From: Schmidtea polychroa
Taxonomy: Eukaryota
NCBI GenBank assembly: GCA_044892525.1
Contig: CM097885.1
Location: 147,064,001-147,128,000, forward strand
Length of the DNA: 64,000 bases
Direction: 5' to 3'
Shown: positions 11,673 through 63,488 of the stretch, one piece after another
How positions within the stretch are numbered: position 1 is the first letter of the stretch
Layout of the letters: each line of letters opens with the position of its first letter
Notes under the pieces: generated by a model
What the model was told of the DNA's origin: nothing
Database searches by the model: none
The model's input: only the letters and a program-made list of their open reading frames with translations
Made by a program: the position numbers and the translations under genes

Positions 11673-12172
11673 AGTAGGGTATTGTGTGGACCCGGGAACA
11701 AAGACATATGACGTCATCGATGACGTCACAAAGACATATGACGTCATATCCCCGGGGAGGGTTTTTTTTTAATTTTTTTTTTAATTTTTTTTAAAATTTT
11801 TTTTTTAAATTTTTTTTTTAATTTTTTTTAAAAAAAAAATATATTACGTTGCGGTATTTTAAAATTTATATTACGTTGCGGTATTTTAAAATTTATTATA
11901 TTTTAATTATTAAATATATTACGTTGCGGTATTTTAAAAACTTATTTTGACGGTTAAGTTGACAAAATAAAATTATTATTACACACAATATAGTCTATCA
12001 GACAAGATTTTCTGTCACACACACAAGGTATAAAAAATATTATTAGTGTCCACACACGCAACAAGTTAGTGTTCTCATCGATAGCTATTGATATATTATT
12101 ATTATTAATCTATATACTCCGAGTCTATCCGACAAAATATTCTGTCCCCTTATGGGTACTGCTCACAAAGGT
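11673..12172 (+). repeat. Left terminal inverted repeat of the Polinton
   Basis: Reverse complement of ~19075-19512. Contains TGACGTCA x3 and ATATTACGTTGCGGTATTTTAAAA x3. Confidence 0.92.
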
Positions 12173-12260
12173 AAAGGTCACAAAGGTAAAGGTCGCAAAT
12201 GTACTGCTAAAAAATATTCAAGACAAAACTTTAACAAAGAAATTATACTTTAAATATACA

Positions 12261-16539: not shown

Positions 16540-18383
16540 TTAAAGATTCTTTTTGCTAAGATTGACTCATTAACTGTTAAATTTATAGACTCTTATCAAT
16601 TTGTCAGCGAGTCTTTAAATAATGCTGTCAAAACTTTATCATCTTTACCCTTGACCGAATCAGAATTTCAGGGTACCATAATAACTGCAAAGGGGATTTT
16701 TCCTTATGATGCCGCAACTTCATTAGAGGTTTTACATAACACTCGTCAGTTACCTCCTATTTGGAAAGATGTGACTCCCGCTGAATATGAGACAGCTCAG
16801 CGAATTTGGGTTGAAACTTCATGTACTTCACTTTTCGATTACATGATGGTTTATTTAAAACTTGATGTTTTCCTTTTAGCCGATTTTTTCCAGCAATTTA
16901 GAGCTAAGTCCATTGCTCATAACCGACTAGAGCCATTAAATTTCTTAGGGATTCCAGGTATGTCTTGGAATTCAGCCTTATTAACTTTAAACTCTCCAAT
17001 TGAGTTCCTCACCGATATGGAGATGTATAACTTTTTCGAGGGCGGTATCCGTGGCGGACTAACTTTTGTAAATAAACATTATGTAAAAACAGACCCGAAT
17101 ACCGCTTTGCTTTACATAGATATAAATAATTTATACGGTTGGGCTTTAAGTCAACCATTACCTTGCAGTGACTTTGAATGGGTTACTGATGATAATTTAT
17201 TAAATAATATAATTGTTGAATGCACAACGGTAGATTTAGATCTGCTTGATTATGGTTATACCATATAAGTGGATTTAGAAATACCGATGTCAATTCACGA
17301 CAAACTGGACGATCTTCCCGTTGCCGCTGAAAAGATGTGTGTACCGGGTTCGAAAATAGAGAAGCTGTTGCTTACACACAGCCCCAAGAGGAACTATGTT
17401 CTTCATTGGAGGCTTCTACAAATATTTATTAAATTAGGTGTTAAAATATCAAAAACACATAGAGCAATTAAATTTAAACAAGATAAAATTTTCAAAAATT
17501 ATATTAATTATTAAACAACAGTCTTTACGGCAAGACTGTTGAAAATCTTAAAAAACGTATTAATTTACGTCTGTGTAATTCTTCACAGAGATTATTAACA
17601 TTCTGTTCGAAACCGACTTTTCGTAAATCCACGAAAATCGATGATGACTTGATTTCGGTTTTATTGAGGAAGGACATAGTGTGTTTGAATAGACCTAGTT
17701 ACATTGGTCAAACCGTACTTGATTTATCCAAACTCAGGATGTACCAGCTGCAGTATGAAGAGTTGCAAAAATATCGCGACGAATTCAACTGCGAAATTAA
17801 TATCGTTGCTGGAGACACAGATTCCTTCTTCTTGGAAATTAAACATTGTAGACTTGACATTCTTTTACCTGCGATGATTAGATATCAATTATTAGATACT
17901 TCGAATTATGACCCAAATCATCCTTTATATAGTAGGAACTTTGATTCTGTCATTGGTAAATTCAAAGACGAGAATAAAGGGTTATTATATAAAGATTGGG
18001 TGTTCTTGAGACCTAAATGTTACAGTTTGATGGGTGTTGAGGAAAGTATGAAGGCTAAGGGGATAAGTATGAAAGATACTGGACTAACACATCAGTCGTA
18101 TCTAGATTGTTATTTAAATGATAAAATATACACAGTCCCTCAGTTTAGAATAACGTCAAAAAATCACCAACTTTTTAGTATTAAAAATAATAAAAGAGCC
18201 TTGACATGTAGAGATGATAAGCGAAATTGGGTGGATAAAAATCAAAGTTTGGCATATGGCCATTATAGGGGCGGTGACACCGATATATTTATAGATTCAA
18301 CGGAAGCTATCTCAGCAGATGATACAGATGATTTCCATGATCCAGCAGATGATAATTATTTTGGACATGATTATTTTCGATGA
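16540..18383 (+). pseudogene. Protein-primed family B DNA polymerase (pPolB), fragmented by stops/frameshifts
   Basis: FIDSYQF, KGIFPYD, YLKLDVFLLAD, GIRGG, YIDINNLYG, DTDS, GKFKDE, LRPKCYS, KAKGI and DDKR motifs in order across ORFs 16651-17268, 17269-17514 and 17649-18383. Confidence 0.93.
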
Positions 18384-18833
18384 TGTGTTTAAATTATTTA
18401 ATAAATGTATTAGTCATATTGTCTTGAATATTTTTTAACAGTAACTTTGTGAACAATTTTTATACATTGTGTGTAATAATAATATGTTAAAGTTTCGTTA
18501 GTTACCTTTATGACCTTTACCCAGTGTGTTAATAAATTTTAGTGTATATTTAAAGTATAATTTCTTTGTTAACATTAACAAAGAAATTATACTTTAAATA
18601 TACACTAAAATTTATTAACACACTGGGTAAAGGTCATAAAGGTAACTAACGAAACTTTAACATATTATTATTACACACAATGTATAAAAATTGTTCACAA
18701 AGTTACTGTTAAAAAATATTCAAGACAATATGACTAATACATTTATTAAATAATTTAAACACATCATCGAAAATAATCATGTCCAAAATAATTATCATCT
18801 GCTGGATCATGGAAATCATCTGTATCATCTGCT
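18314..18833. repeat. 520-bp perfect palindrome (259-bp arms, 2-nt spacer at 18573-18574)
   Basis: AGCAGATGATACAG... is mirrored exactly by ...CTGTATCATCTGCT; lies next to an N gap. Confidence 0.9.
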
Positions 18834-19074
18834 TGAATATTTGTGACCTTTACCTTTGTGACCTTTACNNNNNNNNNNNNNNNNNNNNNNNNNNNNNNNN
18901 NNNNNNNNNNNNNNNNNNNNNNNNNNNNNNNNNNNNNNNNNNNNNNNNNNNNNNNNNNNNNNNNNNNNNNNNNNNNNNNNNNNNNNNNNNNNNNNNNNNN
19001 NNNNNNNNNNNNNNNNNNTTACATTGTTTAATAATATCATTGTACCCTTGCGAGTTGTTGAGCGTGACCAGTAC

Positions 19075-19512
19075 CCTTGTGAGCAGTACCCATAAGGGGA
19101 CAGAATATTTTGTCGGATAGAGTCGGAGTATATAGATTAATAATAATAATATATCAATAGCTATCGATGAGAACACTAACTTGTTGCGTGTGTGGACACT
19201 AATAATATTTTTTATATCTTGTGTGTGTGACAGAATATCTTGTCTGATAGACTATATTGTGTGTAATAATAATTTTGTCAACTTAACCGTCAAAATAAGT
19301 TTTTAAAATACCGCAACGTAATATAGTTAATAATTAAAATGTAATAAATTTTAAAATACCGCAACGTAATATAAATTTTAAAATACCGCAACGTAATATA
19401 TTTTTAAAAAAATTAAAAAAACCCTCCCCCGGGGGGTATGGCGTCATATGTCTTTGTGACGTCATCGATGACGTCATATGTCTTTGTTCCCGGGTCCACA
19501 CAATACCCTACT
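19075..19512 (-). repeat. Right terminal inverted repeat of the Polinton
   Basis: Reverse complement of the left TIR with shorter poly-T/A tracts; followed by TSD GAAGTT. Confidence 0.92.
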
Positions 19513-24408: not shown

Positions 24409-24493
<85 letters not shown>

Positions 24494-24876
24494 GGATTCT
24501 CATCCGTTACAACATTAATATCTGGTTCCAAATCACTAAATAATTCAATAAATTTTATTCAATAAATTTTACACTCAAAAACTTGTCTTTTCTTGGTTTT
24601 GTTATTTAAACAAATTTCAATTTTTCTTTTAAAATATTTTTCAATAAAAATATTTTTTAAATTTAATAAAATTTCTAATTAAATCTTTACGAATCTATCA
24701 ACTTCCTCATATCCCCCTCCTTAAAAAATTTTTTAAGTTTTTCCACATATCTTTCAATCATTTTACCATTCTCGTTTCTTAAGATATATCGTCTGTCATG
24801 CACTTTCTCGATCACTTTATATGGTCACTCATAGCTGTCGTGGCTTTTGTTGCGCGTTTCTAATTTTACTCCGACG

Positions 24877-25560
24877 TCAAATTTCCTCCTTCTTTGTTCT
24901 TCTTGTTCTTCCTTTACCTGATTTTCTTTCGACCCGTACCATTTTTCCCTGCAAGTCTTTTTTTTCAAAAACTATCTCTGCCGGGCTTTTTCCTGTCGTT
25001 TTTTGTTTGGTTGCATTTAATGTAAATGCGACTTCTGGTAGTATCTCGGCCCAATCCGTCTTATTTCTATCTCGTAAAGTAGTATTTATCAGTTCTCGTA
25101 TTGTCCTGAATTGCCTTTCTATCTGTCCATTTGTTTGGTGATGGTATGGACTCAAAAGCCATAACTTAATGTCAAGTTTCTTTGTGAATTCTCTCATCAT
25201 TCCTGATTCAAACGCTTTCCCACAATCAACTCTTATCTCCTTTGGGCATCCAAATATTAAAATCCATTTTTCTAAAATCGTTTTCTTTATTGATTCCTCG
25301 TCTTGTCTTGACATAGCTGTCAAGACTTGATACTTACTATACTGGTCTATTATACCCAATTTATACTTTTTACGTCCTCTTGTTTCTTGCATTGGTCCAC
25401 ATATATCCACGATATATCCTGTTTTTTTACTGGTTCCTTCGTTATAATTGTTATAGCCTTGGTGTTTTGAGAAGTCTCCTGAATCTGACTCTACAGTTTT
25501 TTTCCAATATATCTATCTTGCATATAATCAGCTATCTTCTTGACTCTAGCATAACACAAT
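24877..25560 (-). pseudogene. Gypsy integrase
   Basis: DICGP, IIDQYSKY, RVDCGKAFES, SPYHHQTNGQIERQFRT (DDE core). Confidence 0.85.
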
Positions 25561-25734
25561 AGTCTATGTATTTCCTTTATGGTTTCTTGTATCTCGTTTT
25601 CTGGTATCATCGTTTTCTTTCGTAATTCTTCTTCCAAATTTATTTGTTGATTGTTGCTTCTACTTTCTTCTCTAGTAATCTAGTTTTTATCTTTCCTTTC
25701 TTAGCTTCTTCGTGAGCCATTTGGAAATATGGAA

Positions 25735-26640
25735 GGAGCCACCTGGTGATGCAGCAATTCCAAACGGCATTCTATTGAAACAGTATTGCCCTTTCTTTGT
25801 TGAGAAGGCTGTTTTCTCTTGCTCTTCTTCGTCTAACCGCATTTGGTAATATGCATTACCAAGATCGATTGAGTTAAATAAATGGAACATCCTAACAAAT
25901 CTAACATCTCGTCTATGTTTGGCATTGGGAATGCCTGCCTCTCTGTTACTGCATTCAGCTGTCTGAAATCCAAGCATAGCCTAATCTTTGTTCTCTTTTT
26001 TCTATACGCAGAATAACGGCGTGTTTCATGGGAAGTTGCATTTCCGTATAATTCCATTTTCGTATAAATTTTGTATTGCTTCTTCAATTTTTGTTTCCAA
26101 ATTCAACGGTTGACGATATGGTTTTAGGGGTATTGGTTAATCTCTTGTAATTATCTTATGTTTTACTAAATGCGTTCGACCCACATCCCTTTTATCTGCC
26201 ATAAACACGTTTCCACTGTTCGTTATTATTTCCTTTAATTTACTATTCTCGTTAATCTTTAGATGTTCCAACGCTCGCGTCAATCGTTCTTCATCCTTTA
26301 TTTGTCTGCCGAATTTTGCTTCAATGTTACAAATATAGTTCTTGTCTTTTTCACTATATTCGATATCTTTCTTTTTTGCCAGTCTATATCCAAATGATTC
26401 TTGTAATTCTACTCCTCCAATCACCTCTGGTGTCACTTTCTCCGCCACAATGAATCTAACTTCCTTGGAAATATCTCCGATAGTTACTTTAACCTTTGTC
26501 TCTATCGTACTTTCGTTTGCACATCATAACTTATCGTCGTTTCTCATCAATTGTTGTCCTCGTAACTAGTTAAAACAGTTAACACTCATTACATTTATTC
26601 GTGCTCCGGTATCTAATAAACAGTCGAAAATTTCCCCATT
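25735..26640 (-). pseudogene. Gypsy protease and truncated reverse transcriptase
   Basis: FDCLLDTGARINVMS near 26590-26635; LCLDFRQLNAVT, AFPMPNIDEML, IDLGNAYYQ, FCFNRMPFGIA-like segment, then an abrupt junction at ~25735. Confidence 0.8.
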
Positions 26641-26896
26641 CATCATTACTGTTACACTAGTTCTTCCCTGTAGGTTGTTATACACAATTTCTACCTCCTG
26701 CCCCGTTTCAATTGTTCCAATTCTTTCCACTTTTCTCTCCTTAGGAACCTGTATACTTTCTCACTTAACCTTCCTACATTCTCCCACTTTTCTACCCCTT
26801 GAGGATATCCCATCCACTTTCCTGTTAGTATATGGCTCCAACCAACTCCTCTACTGGTGGAGCCCTGTTGTTTAGGTACGTCCTAATAAATTATCT

Positions 26897-27828
26897 TCAT
26901 TTGTCTCTACGCACGATTCCATTAATCCGTCTGTATCTGTTTCCTGTTGGTCTTTGTTTCTCTATCGTTTTCTTGTAACTCGACTTTGTATAACATTCTT
27001 CAGATCTCTGACCATTTTTGTTGCATCTTTTACACCGTATTTCTTGACATAACCATCTTATATAACCTTTCTCACAACCAAAACATCTTGGCACTTCTTT
27101 ATCTGGACAATTATTACTTATATATCCCCTTCTGCACTCTATCTTACTTTTTACTGGACAGTCTATTTTCGTGTGGCCTATTTTGTGCCTTATCCAGCAC
27201 TCTAGTTTTTCTCGTTACCTGCCTTATTCTTTTCATCTTTCTGCGTGTACTGTCATCTTCTTTGTGGATCCTAATAGACCACTCTTGAATTACTTTTCAT
27301 AGCGTTTATCTGATCTCTCTGTTTGCCCACTTTATCCATCAGAATTAATGTTTCCTTTATCTCCTCTGTGCTTTTTATCTTCCGCAATATTACGTCTTTC
27401 TCAACTTCTTTATTCTCAGCACATACTATCAACATCTTTGCTATTATTTTCTCTTTGGTGAATTCTTTATTCTCAACCAACCTGTCGACAAGCTCCTCCA
27501 CTTTTTTAAAATATGTTTCAATCTCTTCGCCTCTTCTTTTACAATTCAATAAACTTTCCATATCCTTTATTACGTCTCTTTCGTAATCAAATGCCATTCG
27601 TAAACTGGCTTGAAATCCTTCTCCTTTTTTAACTGTCTTTGCATATTTCTCCAATAGATCCTCGTCGATCATATATGCAGTCAATCTTTCCTGTTCTTTT
27701 TTATTGATGCCTTTAGCATCGAAATAAATCTCGCATCTTCTAATGAATTTTTCCAAGTCATCACCTTGACAAAGCACCCTTGGCAACAATCTTTCATTAA
27801 TCGCGTCGGTGTTTACCGCTGCCACCAT
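26897..27828 (-). pseudogene. Gypsy gag with degenerate zinc knuckles
   Basis: ATG at 27828-27826 in frame with ORF 27271-27870; CFGCEKGYIRWLC and CKRCNKNGQRSEEC in 26897-27094. Confidence 0.75.
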
Positions 27829-30148
27829 ATTAGGATTCTCATCCGTTACAACATTAATATCTGGTTCCAAATCACTAAATAATTAAAGAAATTTTATTCA
27901 AGAAATTTTACACTCAACAACTTGTTTTTTCTTATTTTTGTTATTTAAACAAATTTCGATTTTTTTTTAATATTTTTCGATAAAATTATTTTTTAAATTT
28001 AACAAAGTTTCTAATTAAATCTTTAAGAATCTTTCAACTTCCTCGTCATCATTATTTTTGGTGATCGTTAGCTGTATGCTCACTGCAAACTATGTGGTAT
28101 TTTCCATTTATTAATATTATAATTATGGCTAATCACGCTTTAACACAGATGTTTAGCAAACATCTATATGTTACTTTTTCAATAAATTGGAAATTTTCAG
28201 TAATTTCAGTAATTTTCAGTAATTTCATATATTTGTGTAGACCATTCGGTAATATTATTGTTGAACAAAAAATGTGGGTTGTGATCAAAATGGGAAACAC
28301 CAAGTAAACATCATAAAAGAGATATTATAACGCCAAAAATAGAAAAGACGAAAGTAAAGTAAATTAATAACAAAAGCAAGAATATATAGAACAAAACAAA
28401 CAAACATAACACATGTTAGATGACAGTCGCAGGCCGATTAGCACATTTGTCCTAACAAGCAATTATGGGACTGGGCAGAATAAATTTAGAGTAAATGTGT
28501 ACAGTGAGAATCAATAAAAGCCAGTTGAATTATCAAAAAAATCATACAATCCAATTGAGAGCCAAAAAAATTAACCAAATCCCATCAATAATCTATGTGA
28601 CTTAATTATCCTTGGTGACTTAATTCAATTCTATTTTATTATGACAATTTAATTTTATTTGTCTGTGTCGAAAATGTATTATTGTATTCATATGGTGGTA
28701 GTGTGACAATTCAATTTCAGTCAATTGGTGATCAAATGTGACTTAATTATTTTTATTTATCTTATAGATTTATATTTTATGGTGTAAATAATGGTTAATC
28801 TTTTAATTTTATATATTGTAAATAATTGAGTTTTTATAATTTAGAGACGGAAATTACTTTAATCAAAAATTTGTTAAAATAACAAAATAAATTTTTAAAA
28901 TACAAAAAAAACAAAACAAATATGGAGAAATTCTTTTAAGAAAACACATGGAGGAATTGAAAAATAAATAAAGAGTTCCTTTCAAAACAAATAAAAGGCT
29001 TTTAATATTGAATCTATAACTTTTAAATAAATAATTTTAAAAGCAAAAATAAAAACAAATAAATTTAATTTGGTATAAATAGGGCCAGTAAATTCAGTTC
29101 AATCACCCCAAAAAATTAAGTCGTAAGCAGACTAGTAAATTTTGGAAGGAAATCCTTTGAAAACTTTTAAATTAGGACAGTACAAAATATAAAAGAATTT
29201 TAGTTGATACACAATAAATTTTTTTTGCATAAATAATAAAACAAGCACATACTGTCAAACAACACAAAAATACACACACGCATCTATCTGATAAATTAAA
29301 GTCATTCAACAATAAAAGCTTTTCATTTAAGGTGAATATTATTTTATTTAAATAAACATTTATAACCGGNNNNNNNNNNNNNNNNNNNNNNNNNNNNNNN
29401 NNNNNNNNNNNNNNNNNNNNNNNNNNNNNNNNNNNNNNNNNNNNNNNNNNNNNNNNNNNNNNNNNNNNNNNNNNNNNNNNNNNNNNNNNNNNNNNNNNNN
29501 NNNNNNNNNNNNNNNNNNNNNNNATCTCAAATAGTGAGACCTCAACACACAAATAACATATAGAAAGTAAACAAAGTCATATTAATGGCAATAAAAGAAA
29601 CGAGGAACTGGAAATGAAAAGATTTCCACAAAAACACTAGAATATTCTATAAAAATGGTGAATTCAAATCTGGTGCTGACATGAGCAACAACTAAATATA
29701 ACAATAAAATTTAGAAAATTAAATCATAAAAAAATAATAAAAAAAACTTGAATATTAAAAGAAAGAGGAATGATAAAATAAAACTATTAGAAATAGCATA
29801 AAATATTCTCAAAAATGGCCATATCCATCAAGGTAGCGAATTTAATTAAAATTAAATAAAATATTAAAATTAGAAAATGAGATAAATCATAAATAATAAA
29901 AGCTCGCCATCAAAATTGATAAAAATTGAGATAAAAATTAAATATAGTTAAAATAATTCGAATTTTTTTTTATTGTATCAGTGCACACACACAAAAATTA
30001 TGATATATAAGTAGACGCATTTCCGTTTTAAATCAGTAATTTTGGGGCGATCAAATTTTATTTAATTGATCTATAGTACAGTCAGACTATATATATATAT
30101 ATATATATAATATAAAATTAGACTAATTTTTGGTAATAAGAAACTAAG

Positions 30149-57054: not shown

Positions 57055-57532
57055 TGTTTACAGAAAACATTAAGACCAAGAAGCTGGTTTCCTTTATTAA
57101 CTTTAGAAATATAATCCAACACAACTGTTATCATTTCATCTGTGAAGTCATCATAATATTGTTTCAACCATTCTTTGTTTTAGTCACTGATTGATCGTAT
57201 ATTGAATTCAAAACATAATTGTTCAACACTTTTGCTAGCAACCATTTGAATTGTGTTTATCCTTTTAAGAGCTCGATTAAATAGAATATCATATCCCTTC
57301 TTTTCGGCAGTTCCATATTCTGCTTTATTATTCTTTGACATGAAACGATGAACAAAACTATTAGTGGCATTTGACTCAAAATCTAAGGTTTGAATTGTAA
57401 TTCTAAACGGAGTTCCAGCATCATATATACTATATTACATAGCACTATCTTTTGCAGCAATTATTCTGTCAATACTGGGTCTAATAGAAGTGTCATAATA
57501 TTCACCAGATGATTTAATAACATTTTCCAACG
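57055..57532 (-). pseudogene. Decayed paralogue of the 191-aa cassette protein
   Basis: MPNPKES...GYDILFNRALKRINTIQMVASKSVEQL...; two in-frame stops; upstream hairpin at 57655-57704. Confidence 0.7.
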
Positions 57533-58814
57533 ATTCTTTTGGATTCGGCATTCCAAAAATTCACCAAAATAACCCATTCAAACAAATATTCTGCCACTCT
57601 ATTAATCAAAAATTACAAACTAATTAAAATAAAAATTACCACATACCTATTGCTCGCGTCTGTGTGCGCACATCCATATTACCATAAGTCTGCACACAGA
57701 CGAGACAACACTCAACAAACAAACTGCCAGTCAGAGGTAAATGCCATTCTCCCTCTCACTGGTCGAAACAGATAGTCCTTATCAAGGACTATCTTACAGT
57801 CGAAACATTTTTCATTAAATACATTATTTGCAGCAAAAGGCTTAAATTAACATTTTATTATTTTAATTAATAAATGCTGCTACCAAGAAATCATCACTTT
57901 ATACCAGTCGTTCTCAAACTTTTTTGTTCACGACCCAAATTTTTGACATTTCATGCCAAAAATTTTATTGCGACCCACATGACAAAGATTAATTTTAAAA
58001 TAAATGTTTATTTAATGAGATGAATGTAGTTGCTTAAGTTCAAGTATTTTTGACATCCTTGGTGAATAATTTTTACTCAAACATATTCGAAGATCGTTTG
58101 AAATATTGAGTTGGTTTCTTTGCTTTGTCTTTATTTGAACCAATGAGATGGATGGATAGAAATAAAAGAACTAAAATTCCATGAAATTGAAAAGGGCTAT
58201 CTTATAGTCAAAAATTTCTTCATTTCTATTAAATATATTATTCGCAGCGAAAGTCTTAAATNNNNNNNNNNNNNNNNNNNNNNNNNNNNNNNNNNNNNNN
58301 NNNNNNNNNNNNNNNNNNNNNNNNNNNNNNNNNNNNNNNNNNNNNNNNNNNNNNNNNNNNNNNNNNNNNNNNNNNNNNNNNNNNNNNNNNNNNNNNNNNN
58401 NNNNNNNNNNNNNNNNNNNATTTAAGACTTTCGCTGCGAATAATATATTTAATAGAAATGAAGAAATTTTTGACTATAAGATAGCCCTTTTCAATTTCAT
58501 GGAATTTTAGTTCTTTTATTTTCCAAAATGCTATTTGATCTTCTCTTTTATTTAAGTTTTCTTACTTCTCATTGTGATTAATTGTCGATAATCGCGTCTG
58601 TGTGCGCTTTGAACTGGTTTATGGAGGTTTTTTTGTGTGCGCACACAGACGCGGACAATTGTGAAAATTGTCAGTTTTTTTTGATTGGATGGAATTTTAT
58701 TTTTTGTGTGTTTTTTTGCTGGATTCGAATTATTGTTGGAGTTATGTTTTCTGGAATTGTGGTTTTAAAGAATGGATTTATAATTTTGATTTGAATTTTC
58801 GGCCTTAGTGAAAT

Positions 58815-59390
58815 ATGGAAGATGATGAATGTTTGATATGTCGTTTTTCAATGGGCAATATGGCGAAGAGATGTCTTTTCATCAGTGAAACTTGTACATG
58901 TGATCGTGGCTCAGCAAGATCGTTGCAAATTATTAATAGAAGTTTTTCAAAACGATTGGAAATCAACGATTTGATTTCTGTAAATCATGAAATGACAGAA
59001 GAGGAATTCCAAGATATTATATTTCCCCAAAGGTTTAAAAATATTCGGAAATTATCTGAAACCATTTATGACATGAGCGATAAAAAGATAAACTTGCTAA
59101 CTTATGAATATGATATTCTGTTCAATCGAGCTCTTAAAAAGATCAACACAACTCCAATGTTTATTAGCCGAAGTGTTGAACAATTATCCAATGTTTCAAA
59201 TTCAATCATGGCTCAATCTCAAGTTATTGGACACGATAAATGGTTTAACAAACAATGGTTTTGTACAGATAAAGCGTGTGATATTAATTACAAAGAAATT
59301 CTTCTGATATGTCTTAGACGTAAACATGGTAGCAGAGCGTGGTTCCCTTCAGGGGGCTACGCACCAATGTTTCAGTGGATTTCAGGGTGA
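58815..59390 (+). CDS. Unknown 191-aa protein inside the 5' LTR-like segment
   Basis: Intact ATG ORF with N-terminal CxxC...CxC; the ~30-aa core YDILFNRALKKINTTPMFISRSVEQL is conserved in 57055-57532. Confidence 0.75.
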   Translation: MEDDECLICRFSMGNMAKRCLFISETCTCDRGSARSLQIINRSFSKRLEINDLISVNHEMTEEEFQDIIFPQRFKNIRKLSETIYDMSDKKINLLTYEYDILFNRALKKINTTPMFISRSVEQLSNVSNSIMAQSQVIGHDKWFNKQWFCTDKACDINYKEILLICLRRKHGSRAWFPSGGYAPMFQWISG

Positions 59391-59666
59391 TTTGAACATT
59401 TTATTTGCATGTCATTTAAATTTTATTTGCATTTATTTGAATTTCATTTGCATTTATTTGAATTTTATTTGCATTTCTGTAAAATTAATCATCCTCCCTT
59501 CCCTATCGAGCGTTGGAAAGTGCTGCTATGGGCCCCTGCACTCTTTTAAAGGAGGTCACTATGGAACAGTGTAAAGAAAAAGAAAATAAAAAGCTCAGCG
59601 TTTTTGCGAGCTACGTCAAGGGTGAGGGCGAGCGGGGTAATGGGTTTTGTGTCTCGATTGAAAAGT

Positions 59667-59901
59667 ATGAATTAAATATTTGTCAGAACTCTTAGTGGTA
59701 AGACAATTACTCTTGACGTTGAATGGAATGACACGATTGAAAAAATAAAAGGAAAAATTCAGGACAAAGAAGGAATTCGTGTAAATTATCAAATGTTAGT
59801 CTACGCAGGAAAGCAATTAGAAAATAAAAGAATATTGAAGGTAGGTAGTTCGAAGGTAGGTAGTAGGTTCGACACTTCATTTGTCACTCAGGCTGTGCGG
59901 G
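59667..59901 (+). pseudogene. Ubiquitin-like domain fused to BEL Gag
   Basis: [56 protein letters not shown]...[11 protein letters not shown], clearly ubiquitin-like. One stop and one small duplication/frameshift; the last segment is in frame with Gag. Confidence 0.88.
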
Positions 59902-62513
59902 GACAATGACGAAGAGATTTTAGAAGAAGGACTGTGGAAAAAGAGAATGAAGAAAGGAAAATTAACGAGATTGAGAAACAAGATTCTCAATGATATACAT
60001 GGGAAGGAAGTTAGCGAATGGTTGGAGGAATATGAAGATCAAAAGGAGAGTCTAGATGAAGAATTAGGGGATCTGAGAACGATCAGTAAAAAATTGCAAA
60101 GATTGGACATCACTACAATCTTAGATAAAGACCTGTAAGAGATCGAGGAAAAACATCAAATGATTGGGGCACTGATGGAAAGAAAAGCAAATCAATCTTT
60201 TATGGAAGAGAAGGAAAATGTGAATGATAATACAATCAAGAAAAATAATTCAGTGCATAAAAGAAAACTGGAAAGTCTACAGAAAATTACAATACGTCTT
60301 TGAAGGTAAGATGAAAGAGTACGAACCATTGAAAGCAGCTTTTACGGGGTGTGTTGACGAAGCGGAAGGTGATAGGTTGAAAAGATGTTTCACCTGCACA
60401 AGTACCTTCACGGAGAGCCATTGAAGTTAATTGAAAATCTAGGATATTCGGATTAGGCCTATAAAATGGCAAAAGAGAAGTTGGATAGGCGATATGGTGG
60501 GGATGAAAGGATATATTTATCAATGTTAGAGGAGATGGACAAGTTCAGGCTAATTCGAGAAGGAGATTTGAAGGATCTAGACTTATATTTGTTGGATTAT
60601 TAGAAGCAGTCGACGTTCGATTCAAATCCACTGGGAAAGAATCCGAGTTAAAAACTGGATATCTGTTTCAAAAGTGTTTGGGCAAGTTAACGACGAATCT
60701 TGTGTATAAATGGAAGAAAGACAAAATTGAAAAGGAATTGCGGAAGACAATAGAGGATTTGAGAAGATGGATACAACAAGAAGCGGAGATCCTAAGGTCC
60801 ACTAACGAGGTCGTGTATGGGACTCAACCGAGCACCAGGACTTATGATGGGCCAAGAGTAGAAGGAGTGTCTAGAGGAAGAGAAAGCCTCAATCCAGGAG
60901 GTCGGACGCATTTTACGAGGCAACCAGATGGCAGAGTTAAAAGTGGAACTGTCATACAGGCAAATAACTCTAACTTCTATAGATCAGAGTGTGTACATTG
61001 TGGTGGTCAACATTACCTAGACCAGTGTGACAAGTTCAAGCAACTCACAATTTCTAAAAGGAAGAAAGTCATCGAAGAAAAGAAACTGTGCGGGAATTGC
61101 TTCAAAAGAAATCACATGGCCAAGGAATGTTGTAAAGAATCTTTCTGCAAGGTTACCGGATGTAAGCAAAGACACGACGAATTATTAAATGAAAGACAAA
61201 TCAGTAAGGAGAGTGAAAAAGGTAACAACACGATGTTGACCCAGAAAGGGATGAACGAGAAAAACCTAAGACCTTACCTTAGTTTAAGAACAATTCCAAT
61301 CTACCTGGAAAATGGGAACAAGAAAATAAAAGTCAATGCACTGTTAGATGATGCAAGCTCAGTAAGCTACATCAATCTAAGAATTTTAAAGGAGCTTGGG
61401 TTAAAAGGGGTTGAAAAGAGGACACCGATAGGGGTTATCGGCGGTAATGTCCAACAAATGATGGCTACTCCAGTGACCATGGAGTTAATTAGTAATGACG
61501 GCCGATTGACGAAAAACTTCAACGCATTGGCCGTAAAAATTATCACAGGAGAAATGAAGGTAGTAAATTGGGCAAGAGAAAAACATAAGTGGACTCACCT
61601 GAAGGGCATCCATTTTCCGATGCTAGGCGAAAGACAGGCAGTTGAAGTGTTAATTGGCGCTGATTATTTAACGCTTCAACGAGCACTCAAAGAAATCGAT
61701 GGTAAGTTGGATGAACCGATTGCCCGTTTAGCTCCACTTGGCTGGACATGTGTTGGAAGAACCTCGGTGGGAAGAACTTGGAATCATCAAAGCAATTTCA
61801 TAAGAACGTTCTTTGGTAATTGCGATGATTTGCAAAAACAAATGGAACGATTTTGGGAGATTGATGAAAGTGGCTTAAAGGAAAATGGTAGCAGAGCGTC
61901 AATGAGGACTGTTCAGAGTTATTTTGCGGGAACTGAAATGTTAAATGACGAGTTACGTGCATTTCGGGGAATTGAGGACACGCAACTCGACGGGAGTAAG
62001 GCATCTAATGAAGAGCAAGGAGCTCAGAGTCATATAGATGGGCAAATATTCAATTCTCGAGGAACTAACGAATTAGTTAACGTTATTACAATCACACAAA
62101 GTATTCAAGGAAAAATGAATACAGGGGAAAAGCAAGATGAGGCTTGCCGGGCTGGTGAGATCATAAAATTATCTGAAGATAAAATTGTGAAACCGAAGAC
62201 AACGGAAGTGTTGAGTAATTGGGAAAAAGGCAAACCAGCATCAGAGGATCTAACGCCCGAGGCGGCAGTTAATGATATTCAGGTCGACGAAAGGGAAGTT
62301 AATCGACTAAAGGAAGAACGTGATAATGATCAAGGGGCCAAAGAAGTTTTAGATTTAACAGAAAAATTGAACGAATCATCGAACAGTTTCAAACAACAAG
62401 GATCACTGGAACTCGTTTGCACGCCTCTAAAGATGCACATGAAAGACAAGGTGCCGATTATGGAATTGAAACACGAAGCAATCAAAGAACGACTTTTTAG
62501 GATGCGCTTATAA
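59902..62513 (+). pseudogene. BEL/Pao Gag-protease polyprotein, disrupted
   Basis: KKGKLTRLRNKI N-terminus; FEGKMKEYEPLKAAF...AKEKLDRRYG; CVHCGGQHYLDQC, CGNCFKRNHMAKEC, CKVTGCKQRH; VNALLDDASS. Confidence 0.88.
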
Positions 62514-63049
62514 GAACATTAAGTGAAAACTGGTCACTAAATGAAATGCAACAGGGAAAAGTGTGGAATATCGAATTGGCGAAAAATGGAGAAAGAATAA
62601 TGGAGATATTACACCTAAACAAACTGAACAGGAGCAGCTGCTTGGACGAGTATGGCGATGGTTGGTGGAGAATCCACAATGATGTTTCAAAAAAGGTACG
62701 TGGTGCGGCGGATTATATAATACAAAGATGGGTGTGTGAGGGTTATTGGAGATTGACACCAAGGTGTCAATGGAAGGGGGATGATTAATTGTCGATTCTC
62801 GCGCCTGTGTGAGCTTTTTCCTTGGTTGATTGGAATTGTGTGCGCACACAGACGCGGACTATTGTGAATATTATTTTTAAGTTTATTTGATCGAGGTCAG
62901 AGTTTTTTGATTGTACCGGTTTTTGATTGTTAGAGTTAGTGAGTTTGGATCGATTGGAATCTTGAGTTTTCGAATTTTTTGAATTCCTGTGTTTTTTGCA
63001 AAATATATGATTAAATATAATTCTGGGTTTTTCCTCAAATAATGATTGA

Positions 63050-63488
63050 ATGTTTCTCATATTATTCGTCATGTTCCTGTTGGAAATACTACAAACGAAA
63101 CTGATAGTTCCTTTTTTATGGCTCCAAGAGATCCTGATAACTTTAATGGTGTTTTGGCCAACTAATATCAAATTTATTTGGTGGATTGCTGTCGCAGGAT
63201 TTTAGATCCGATTCGTCAGATTACATGTTTTCAGATCAAAGTTTTGACAAGTGTGTAACGAGTATTAAGAATCAATTTGAACAAAGTGGTACTCCACTAG
63301 TAAATGAGGCAGATATTGGGAAATTACCAGTCAAGAAAATCACCGCAGCTAATGATACAGGTTTCAGTTGTCTGTCAGATTATGAGGTGGCCGATGAAGT
63401 GTACGAGTTGCTCCGTCGAGAAACGCGGACGATTACTAAGACGATACTAAGAACCAAGCTTCAAATGACAATTAAACACATTGGTTAA
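63050..63488 (+). pseudogene. Unknown ORF inside the 3' LTR-like segment
   Basis: Coding-like frames NVSHIIRHVPVG...VLAN and LLSQDFRSD...KHIG separated by a frameshift; downstream of the conserved hairpin. Confidence 0.4.

Follow-up and report, generated by a model that had tools for sequence, protein, structure and literature searches.

The window, a stretch of 64,000 nucleotides from the genome of Schmidtea polychroa (781 Mb, AT-rich, four very large contigs), contains at 58575-63478 an LTR retrotransposon of 4,904 bp with two LTRs, a primer-binding site, a polypurine tract, and a CATTG target-site duplication (Table 1). Gag and protease are present between the LTRs, and no reverse transcriptase (RT), RNase H, or integrase core was found in this copy. 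Two Cys-His boxes in Gag were recognized by pattern and a third by eye. A sequence-only reading of this DNA had proposed that a ubiquitin-like domain (Ubl) is joined to Gag, and this is borne out: the piece at 59676-59906 matches PF00240 (Pfam; E 3e-16), and its tail continues into the Gag helix KKGKLTRLRNKI in the frame of 59860. The same reading correctly described the copy as decayed, with the early stop and small duplication given in Table 1 and an additional stop in Gag at 60136-60138. The window element is thus a decayed, nonautonomous copy of a large, recently active BEL/Pao family.

Table 1. Features of the retrotransposon copy in the window
Feature	Position	Strand	Remarks
Left 5-bp target-site duplication, CATTG	58570..58574	+	
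5' LTR, 752 bp, cargo cluster CL5	58575..59326	+	About 95 bp (80%) common to the 3' LTR, rest unlike
Inverted-repeat motif close to the LTR start, common to family LTRs	58593..58653	+	
LTR-encoded leader frame, ATG at 58815	58812..59390	+	No stop in the final 150 LTR codons or across the primer site; disrupted farther on in this copy
Primer-binding site, in-frame reading GSRAW	59327..59344	+	Presumably matches initiator tRNA-Met
AT-rich linker, primer site to ubiquitin	59345..59666	+	Out of register in this copy
Ubiquitin domain, ends LCGD	59667..59904	+	Early stop at 59673-59675; small duplication near 59838-59866 shifts the frame
Gag N-terminal helices and start of DUF1759	59905..60506	+	Reading frame interrupted by stops and frameshifts
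Gag C-terminal part, Cys-His boxes, aspartic protease	60507..61850	+	DUF1758 weak (E 0.002); DDAS motif
Acidic tail and 3' segment common to nonautonomous copies	61899..62756	+	
Polypurine tract	62772..62781	+	
3' LTR, 697 bp, cargo cluster CL3	62782..63478	+	Zinc-ribbon/RING E3-ligase fragment, which we take to be RNF126/115; 93% to L038
Right 5-bp target-site duplication, CATTG	63479..63483	+	

A DNA search of the genome with the window element returned 440 candidates, of which 40 were scored, and the 39 scored copies besides the window are 90 to 93% identical to it. We also searched the genome with a pattern for the ubiquitin-Gag junction in which five bases of the two glycine codons were left free; Gly-Gly is encoded at 153 of the 165 junctions matched. 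Within a set of 120 ten-kb loci plus the window, the junction is detectable in 119 copies, with the endings LCGG (111 copies), LCGD (the window and 3 others), LCGC (2 copies), and LCGS (2 copies). RT, RNase H, and integrase are all present in 34 of these 119, and many copies have LTR pairs that are 99 to 100% identical. Intact copies of the fusion, for which the sequence-only reading had suggested a search, do occur: single frames of up to ~2,240 codons in sister copies encode ubiquitin, DUF1759, DUF1758, RVT_1, Peptidase_A17, an integrase zinc finger, and DUF5641. The order Gag-PR-RT-RNase H-IN with Pao-type domains in seven long sister open reading frames (Pfam) confirms the BEL/Pao identity that had been proposed, and TG..CA LTRs, a primer site, a polypurine tract, and a short target duplication are found in both the family and the window copy. 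Among 20 loci chosen by their LTR-type cargo (see below) rather than by ubiquitin, 10 have Gag, and all 10 carry the Ubl, one of them partly deleted. The junction counts and these loci together indicate that the Ubl-Gag fusion is a trait of the family and that the G-D ending of the window is a minority variant; the reported change of the C-terminus to LCG-D therefore holds for the window copy and not as the family norm. Tandem or near-identical arrays of family copies were observed at G000:C54, C181, and C1:15.6-16.1 Mb. Contigs of four runs, whose origin from RNA is a guess, cover the stretch, and two of them span the Ubl-Gag join; they are not counted as evidence.

The decay of the window copy is what would be seen if the domain were a one-off, functionless insertion of a processed ubiquitin pseudogene, in which case other family members would lack it. 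At least 165 copies, a second family, and 15 distant relatives carry the Ubl, however, and the changes in it are those of purifying selection rather than of neutral decay (see below), so that this explanation was rejected and retains next to no probability.

The arrangement upstream of the Ubl is best seen in young copies, defined as those with LTR pairs at least 99% identical (n = 54). Their layout is LTR cargo, primer site, linker, ubiquitin ending in LxGG, and Gag-Pol, all in one frame that begins inside the 5' LTR. The Ubl was previously placed at the N-terminus, whereas in young copies it lies ~240 to 430 codons into this frame, and the LTR-encoded host-gene leader upstream of it had been overlooked. 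The LTR interiors of 109 copies fall into 23 clusters, nine of them with multiple members. In the final 150 codons of the LTR, read in the register of Gag, copies with 0 or 1 stop occur in each of the eight largest clusters; the other two sense frames of the same stretch typically have 5 to 21 stops. In 37 of the 54 young copies, the frame has no stop between a point 100 codons within the LTR and the interior of the Ubl. An AATAAA is located 35 or 41 bases ahead of the LTR end in 49 of the 54, which suggests a very short U5, and from this and the open frame we infer a long R region. A transmembrane role was considered for the linker, for which the best 19-residue hydropathy is 1.3 to 2.2 and is not conserved.

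An open frame in the LTR does not by itself require that the LTR be translated. Translation could start at an AUG just ahead of the Ubl, the ubiquitin being a short N-terminal tag that is removed by a deubiquitinase (DUB) and either sets the N-terminus of Gag or helps folding, with the LTR frame left open simply because capture is sense and in frame or because upstream stops are avoided. The window's family does have an in-frame AUG ~8 codons ahead of the Ubl, with out-of-frame AUGs farther upstream, and LTR-captured retrocopies are often sense and in frame according to the accessible part of Tan et al. (PMC5131818). However, the distance from the primer site to the Ubl is divisible by three in 47 of the 54 young copies, over 11 of 17 distinct lengths, versus 9/21 and 12/34 of older or unpaired copies (21/55 in total); the junctions between captured pieces in mosaic leaders are, like the linker, free of stops; and methionine occupies position 1 of the Ubl in only 4 of 12 cases. 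We therefore consider a start directly ahead of the Ubl to be unlikely and favor translation of the leader.

Leader mosaics in the window's family contain pieces of proteasome alpha, of EAP30 (ESCRT-II), and of RING proteins, along with weak zinc-ribbon matches (Pfam). Two cargo clusters and the cargo of the window's 5' LTR gave no convincing Pfam match; the window leader has what we take to be a RINGv-like look, and Pfam gave no support for RINGv in it. The EAP30 cargo is 96 to 97% identical to the host EAP30 gene and the CCT cargo 99% identical to host CCT. Each of these lies inside a single host exon and is thus uninformative on intron loss. Another cargo aligns with one host locus in four separate blocks, at 94 to 100% identity, and two of the gaps between these blocks are GT-AG introns of ~1.5 and 1.65 kb that are missing from the LTR, which indicates that this one cargo was captured via spliced RNA. 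L268 is a candidate host RING gene. The host donor gene for proteasome alpha-1 was not found among the fetched loci, nor was a donor for the window's 5' LTR cargo among 40 scored of 938 candidates, all of which are near full length and resemble LTR copies. Proteasome alpha N-terminal fragments with no Gag nearby were observed at L178-L185 and L211-L217, within 80 PF10584 matches altogether, and are probably solo LTRs. At L272 and L234:1546-2124, one host gene was apparently captured twice, a different part of it by each of the two families.

Selection acts differently on the parts of this frame. Pairwise dN/dS among 48 open copies is 0.37 to 0.44 for the Ubl, for which this measurement had been suggested, and 0.21 to 0.52 for Gag. 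We also contrasted changes seen in a single copy with changes shared by at least 5 copies. The ratio of nonsynonymous to synonymous changes (N/S) falls from 3.2 to 1.3 in the Ubl (P = 0.023) and likewise falls in Gag (P = 0.006 and 0.008), these P values being rough given that the copies are related. The drop is not significant for the proteasome, EAP30, or RING cargo or for the linker (P = 0.44 to 1.0; few changes in EAP30), in tests that for cargo are small, with 10 to 48 copies. CCT cargo departs from this pattern, comparison with the host gene (7 hits) giving 5 shared synonymous and 0 replacement differences. The Ubl and Gag are under purifying selection, and none is detectable on the cargo.

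These results bear on the possibility that the cargo is useful to the element, either as dominant-negative fragments of proteasome, ESCRT, or trafficking proteins released by the ubiquitin or as a decoy that makes silencing by small RNAs costly, both of which are compatible with cleavage. Several donors are indeed proteostasis or trafficking genes, proteasome alpha pieces occur in many mosaics of both families, and EAP30 has been very successful, with 150 matches scored of 328 candidates, nearly all of them fragments. However, no amino acid constraint was detected on three cargos, although these counts bear on the protein and not on a nucleotide-level decoy. The fragments are also truncated, reshuffled, and of mixed function, and an earlier idea of ours that cargo is limited to the ubiquitin-proteasome system was dropped on the evidence of CCT, DEAD helicase, LIM, phosphatase, kinesin, and HSP90 pieces. 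A benefit from the cargo itself thus seems a little less likely even than a start at the AUG next to the Ubl.

The same genome contains a second BEL/Pao family with the same primer site and overlapping cargo, the Gag of which is ~38% identical to that of the window's family. Its Ubls are in tandem, one near-canonical (the first unit in L232-L251 is 71/76 identical to host ubiquitin) and one ending in LGLAGG. All 20 loci fetched by the ubiquitin search (L232-L251) are of this type, and no RT was found in them. Cargo in this family includes Ras, dual-specificity phosphatase, CCT, LIM, and DEAD pieces. At L238:1577-2290, a DEAD-box helicase fragment was observed in the linker, past the primer site, with the frame kept.

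Homologue searches that included the Ubl in the query were dominated by polyubiquitins, and public proteins were searched with Gag-protease only. The best 8 of 120 listed public proteins (33 to 41% identical) have a Ubl, six by HMM and two as N-terminal tails, and none was detected in the remaining 112. A further 143 new representatives yielded seven more carriers (six by HMM and one by tail), which brings the distant public relatives with a ubiquitin-Gag join to 15. Several have host cargo upstream, including kinesin with Sec23/24, TRAF, and HSP90, and two metagenome contigs have the same primer site inside the open reading frame. In an RT-RNase H tree, nine ubiquitin-bearing rows form one side of a branch with an SH-aLRT of 99, the tree being unrooted, made by a quick method, and inclusive of 50 of the 106 relatives lacking ubiquitin; end branches are 0.25 to 0.97, and the relatives in the clade were found by their similarity to the window's family. 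The Ubl-Gag fusion is real, functional-looking, and ancient. It was right to regard it as a trait of a retrotransposon lineage, as at least 165 junction matches, all 10 Gag-bearing loci picked by cargo, and the distant relatives attest.

The residues retained by the Ubl are informative about its role. The family Ubl matches PF00240 with an E value of 5e-22 and is identical to host ubiquitin at 53 of 76 residues; among PDB entries, its 60 best matches are all ubiquitins or engineered variants of ubiquitin. Deubiquitinases require LxGG, the tail arginines serve charging by E1, and the surface around I44 and V70 is bound by ubiquitin receptors such as those of ESCRT; more broadly, conjugation or receptor binding involves the R42/R72/R74 and L8/I44/V70 surfaces. 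We compared 17 Gag-proximal Ubls, of which the full-length ones have 18 to 62 residues identical to host ubiquitin. L73 (17/17), G75 (16/17), and G76 (17/17) are retained, whereas R74 (4/17), R72 (7/17), I44 (2/14), V70 (2/17), and M1 (4/12) are mostly lost. The residue past the tail is never proline (0/17); in 14/17 it is M, S, or G. An LxGG ending followed by a residue other than proline is found at 153/165 junctions in the family and in 16/17 members of the clade; the window copy has GD, and the relative P0242 ends in EG. With M42, V44, S70, and C74, the family does not keep the surfaces for conjugation or receptor binding. The pattern of residues fits a cut site and not a modifier or an ESCRT hook.

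A Ubl that remains attached to Gag uncut, where it would recruit ESCRT or change the stability of the particle, as the sequence-only reading had suggested, is accordingly very improbable. Cleavage by some DUBs could be hampered by R74C in the family and by missing tail arginines in relatives, and four of the 119 copies, including that of the window, end in GD. However, GG is the norm and the di-glycine is the most conserved part of the domain across the clade, so that the fusion is probably cleavable; I44 and V70, through which ESCRT would be recruited, are among the least conserved positions; and the uncut product would bear a variable leader of several hundred residues.

We propose instead that the Ubl is a site at which host deubiquitinases would cut Gag-Pol free of its disposable leader, in the manner of cytopathic pestiviruses, and on the sequence comparisons given here we put the probability of this reading at about 0.7. 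The case rests on the data from across the clade, since 12 non-GG endings in 165 are close to what neutral decay would give within the family alone, and the Cys at position 74 in the family may slow cleavage by some DUBs. Transcription would start near the 5' end of the LTR, placing the cargo in a long R region, and pieces of host mRNA would be picked up when the reverse transcriptase switches templates. Ribosomes would then translate leader, linker, ubiquitin, and Gag(-Pol), and a host DUB would cut after GG, leaving a fixed Gag N-terminus whatever cargo is upstream. A leader made disposable in this way would be subject to selection on its open frame only and not on its protein sequence.

In the pestivirus bovine viral diarrhea virus (BVDV), the captured ubiquitin of strains Osloss, CP1, and CP Rit is a processing signal for host ubiquitin hydrolases (PMC8310069). 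As far as the accessible part of that source goes, foreign sequence stands ahead of a captured, N-terminally truncated ubiquitin there as it does here, and the next protein gains an authentic N-terminus in BVDV, as is proposed for Gag. In contrast to those sporadic, recent events in an RNA virus, the ubiquitin described here is fixed in a deep retrotransposon clade, has diverged down to LxGG, and is tied to ongoing gene capture.

In a broader and more tentative reading, which we hold at somewhat below even odds, the LTR of this deep BEL/Pao clade would be a translated, swappable gene-capture cassette insulated by the ubiquitin cut site. Fragments would be shuffled between families and expressed without cost to Gag-Pol, making the clade a standing exon-shuffling engine in animal genomes, in which some cargos may act on host proteostasis or silencing. 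LTR-mediated retroposition, in which host mRNAs and sometimes several genes are captured by template switching, was described by Tan et al. (2016; PMC5131818). In the available part of that paper, the element is defective and has the retrocopy in place of internal sequence, whereas here the cargo is inside both LTRs, a full Gag-Pol is kept, and cargo is common to families with Gag only ~38% identical. The giant Burro elements of planarians (Arkhipova and Yushenova 2019; PMC6431247) are also LTR elements with captured host domains in the polyprotein, including a Ubi2/SUMO-like motif. From what could be seen of that article, they differ in being Gypsy elements of ~30 kb with fixed accessory domains behind an N-terminal Gag, and neither a cut-site role nor a swappable LTR leader is described in it.

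With known BEL/Pao elements (Belpaoviridae), those described here share the single Gag-PR-RT-RH-IN frame, DUF1759, DUF1758, Peptidase_A17, DUF5641, TG..CA LTRs, and the 5-bp target duplication; the internal ubiquitin and the LTR-encoded host-gene leader set them apart. Planarian families are included in the candidate superfamily Flow in the accessible text of de la Chaux and Wagner (2011; PMC3118150), with BEL1-I_SM, BEL-4-I_NV, and Hydra Flow families as references for the group. The term "ubiquitin" is absent from that article, nine of its supplements, PMC6238403, PMC8556966, PMC5408684, and PMC11410931, which include surveys of molluscs, annelids, and rotifers, and no paper on a ubiquitin-bearing BEL element or on LTR mosaics was found in the freely accessible literature searched. 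If correct, our reading would describe a retroelement whose processing begins with a cut by a host deubiquitinase, an arrangement fixed over a long span of evolution, and would account for how an LTR element continues to capture host genes while keeping its autonomy. The clade also constitutes a natural mutational scan of ubiquitin in which LxGG is kept while the receptor and E1 surfaces are lost. There are also practical consequences for work on this animal: with host-gene fragments present in LTRs by the hundred, gene families can be inflated, read mapping can be confounded, and RNAi can hit the fragments.

The two LTRs of the window element (58575-59326 and 62782-63478) have different cargos and yet belong to one insertion with a matching 5-bp target duplication. 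This is the sole discordant pair among 32 copies listed with a target duplication, and a loose survey of 16 older copies listed gave no clear second case with a matching duplication. It was possibly produced by gene conversion between LTRs, by which cargo could be swapped. Just upstream of the element, at 57180-57720 on the minus strand, is an inverted, diverged LTR-like fragment of the same family. Elsewhere in the window, perfect palindromes at 58160-58521 (centered on a run of N) and 18314-18833, with arms of 181 and 259 bp, are either foldback elements or assembly artifacts. Nested long inverted repeats at 11673-12181 and 19064-19512, ~7.5 kb apart, resemble the ends of DNA transposons, and direct repeats ~3.3 kb apart flank a strongly strand-skewed stretch at 24489-28044 that is possibly another retroelement on the minus strand.
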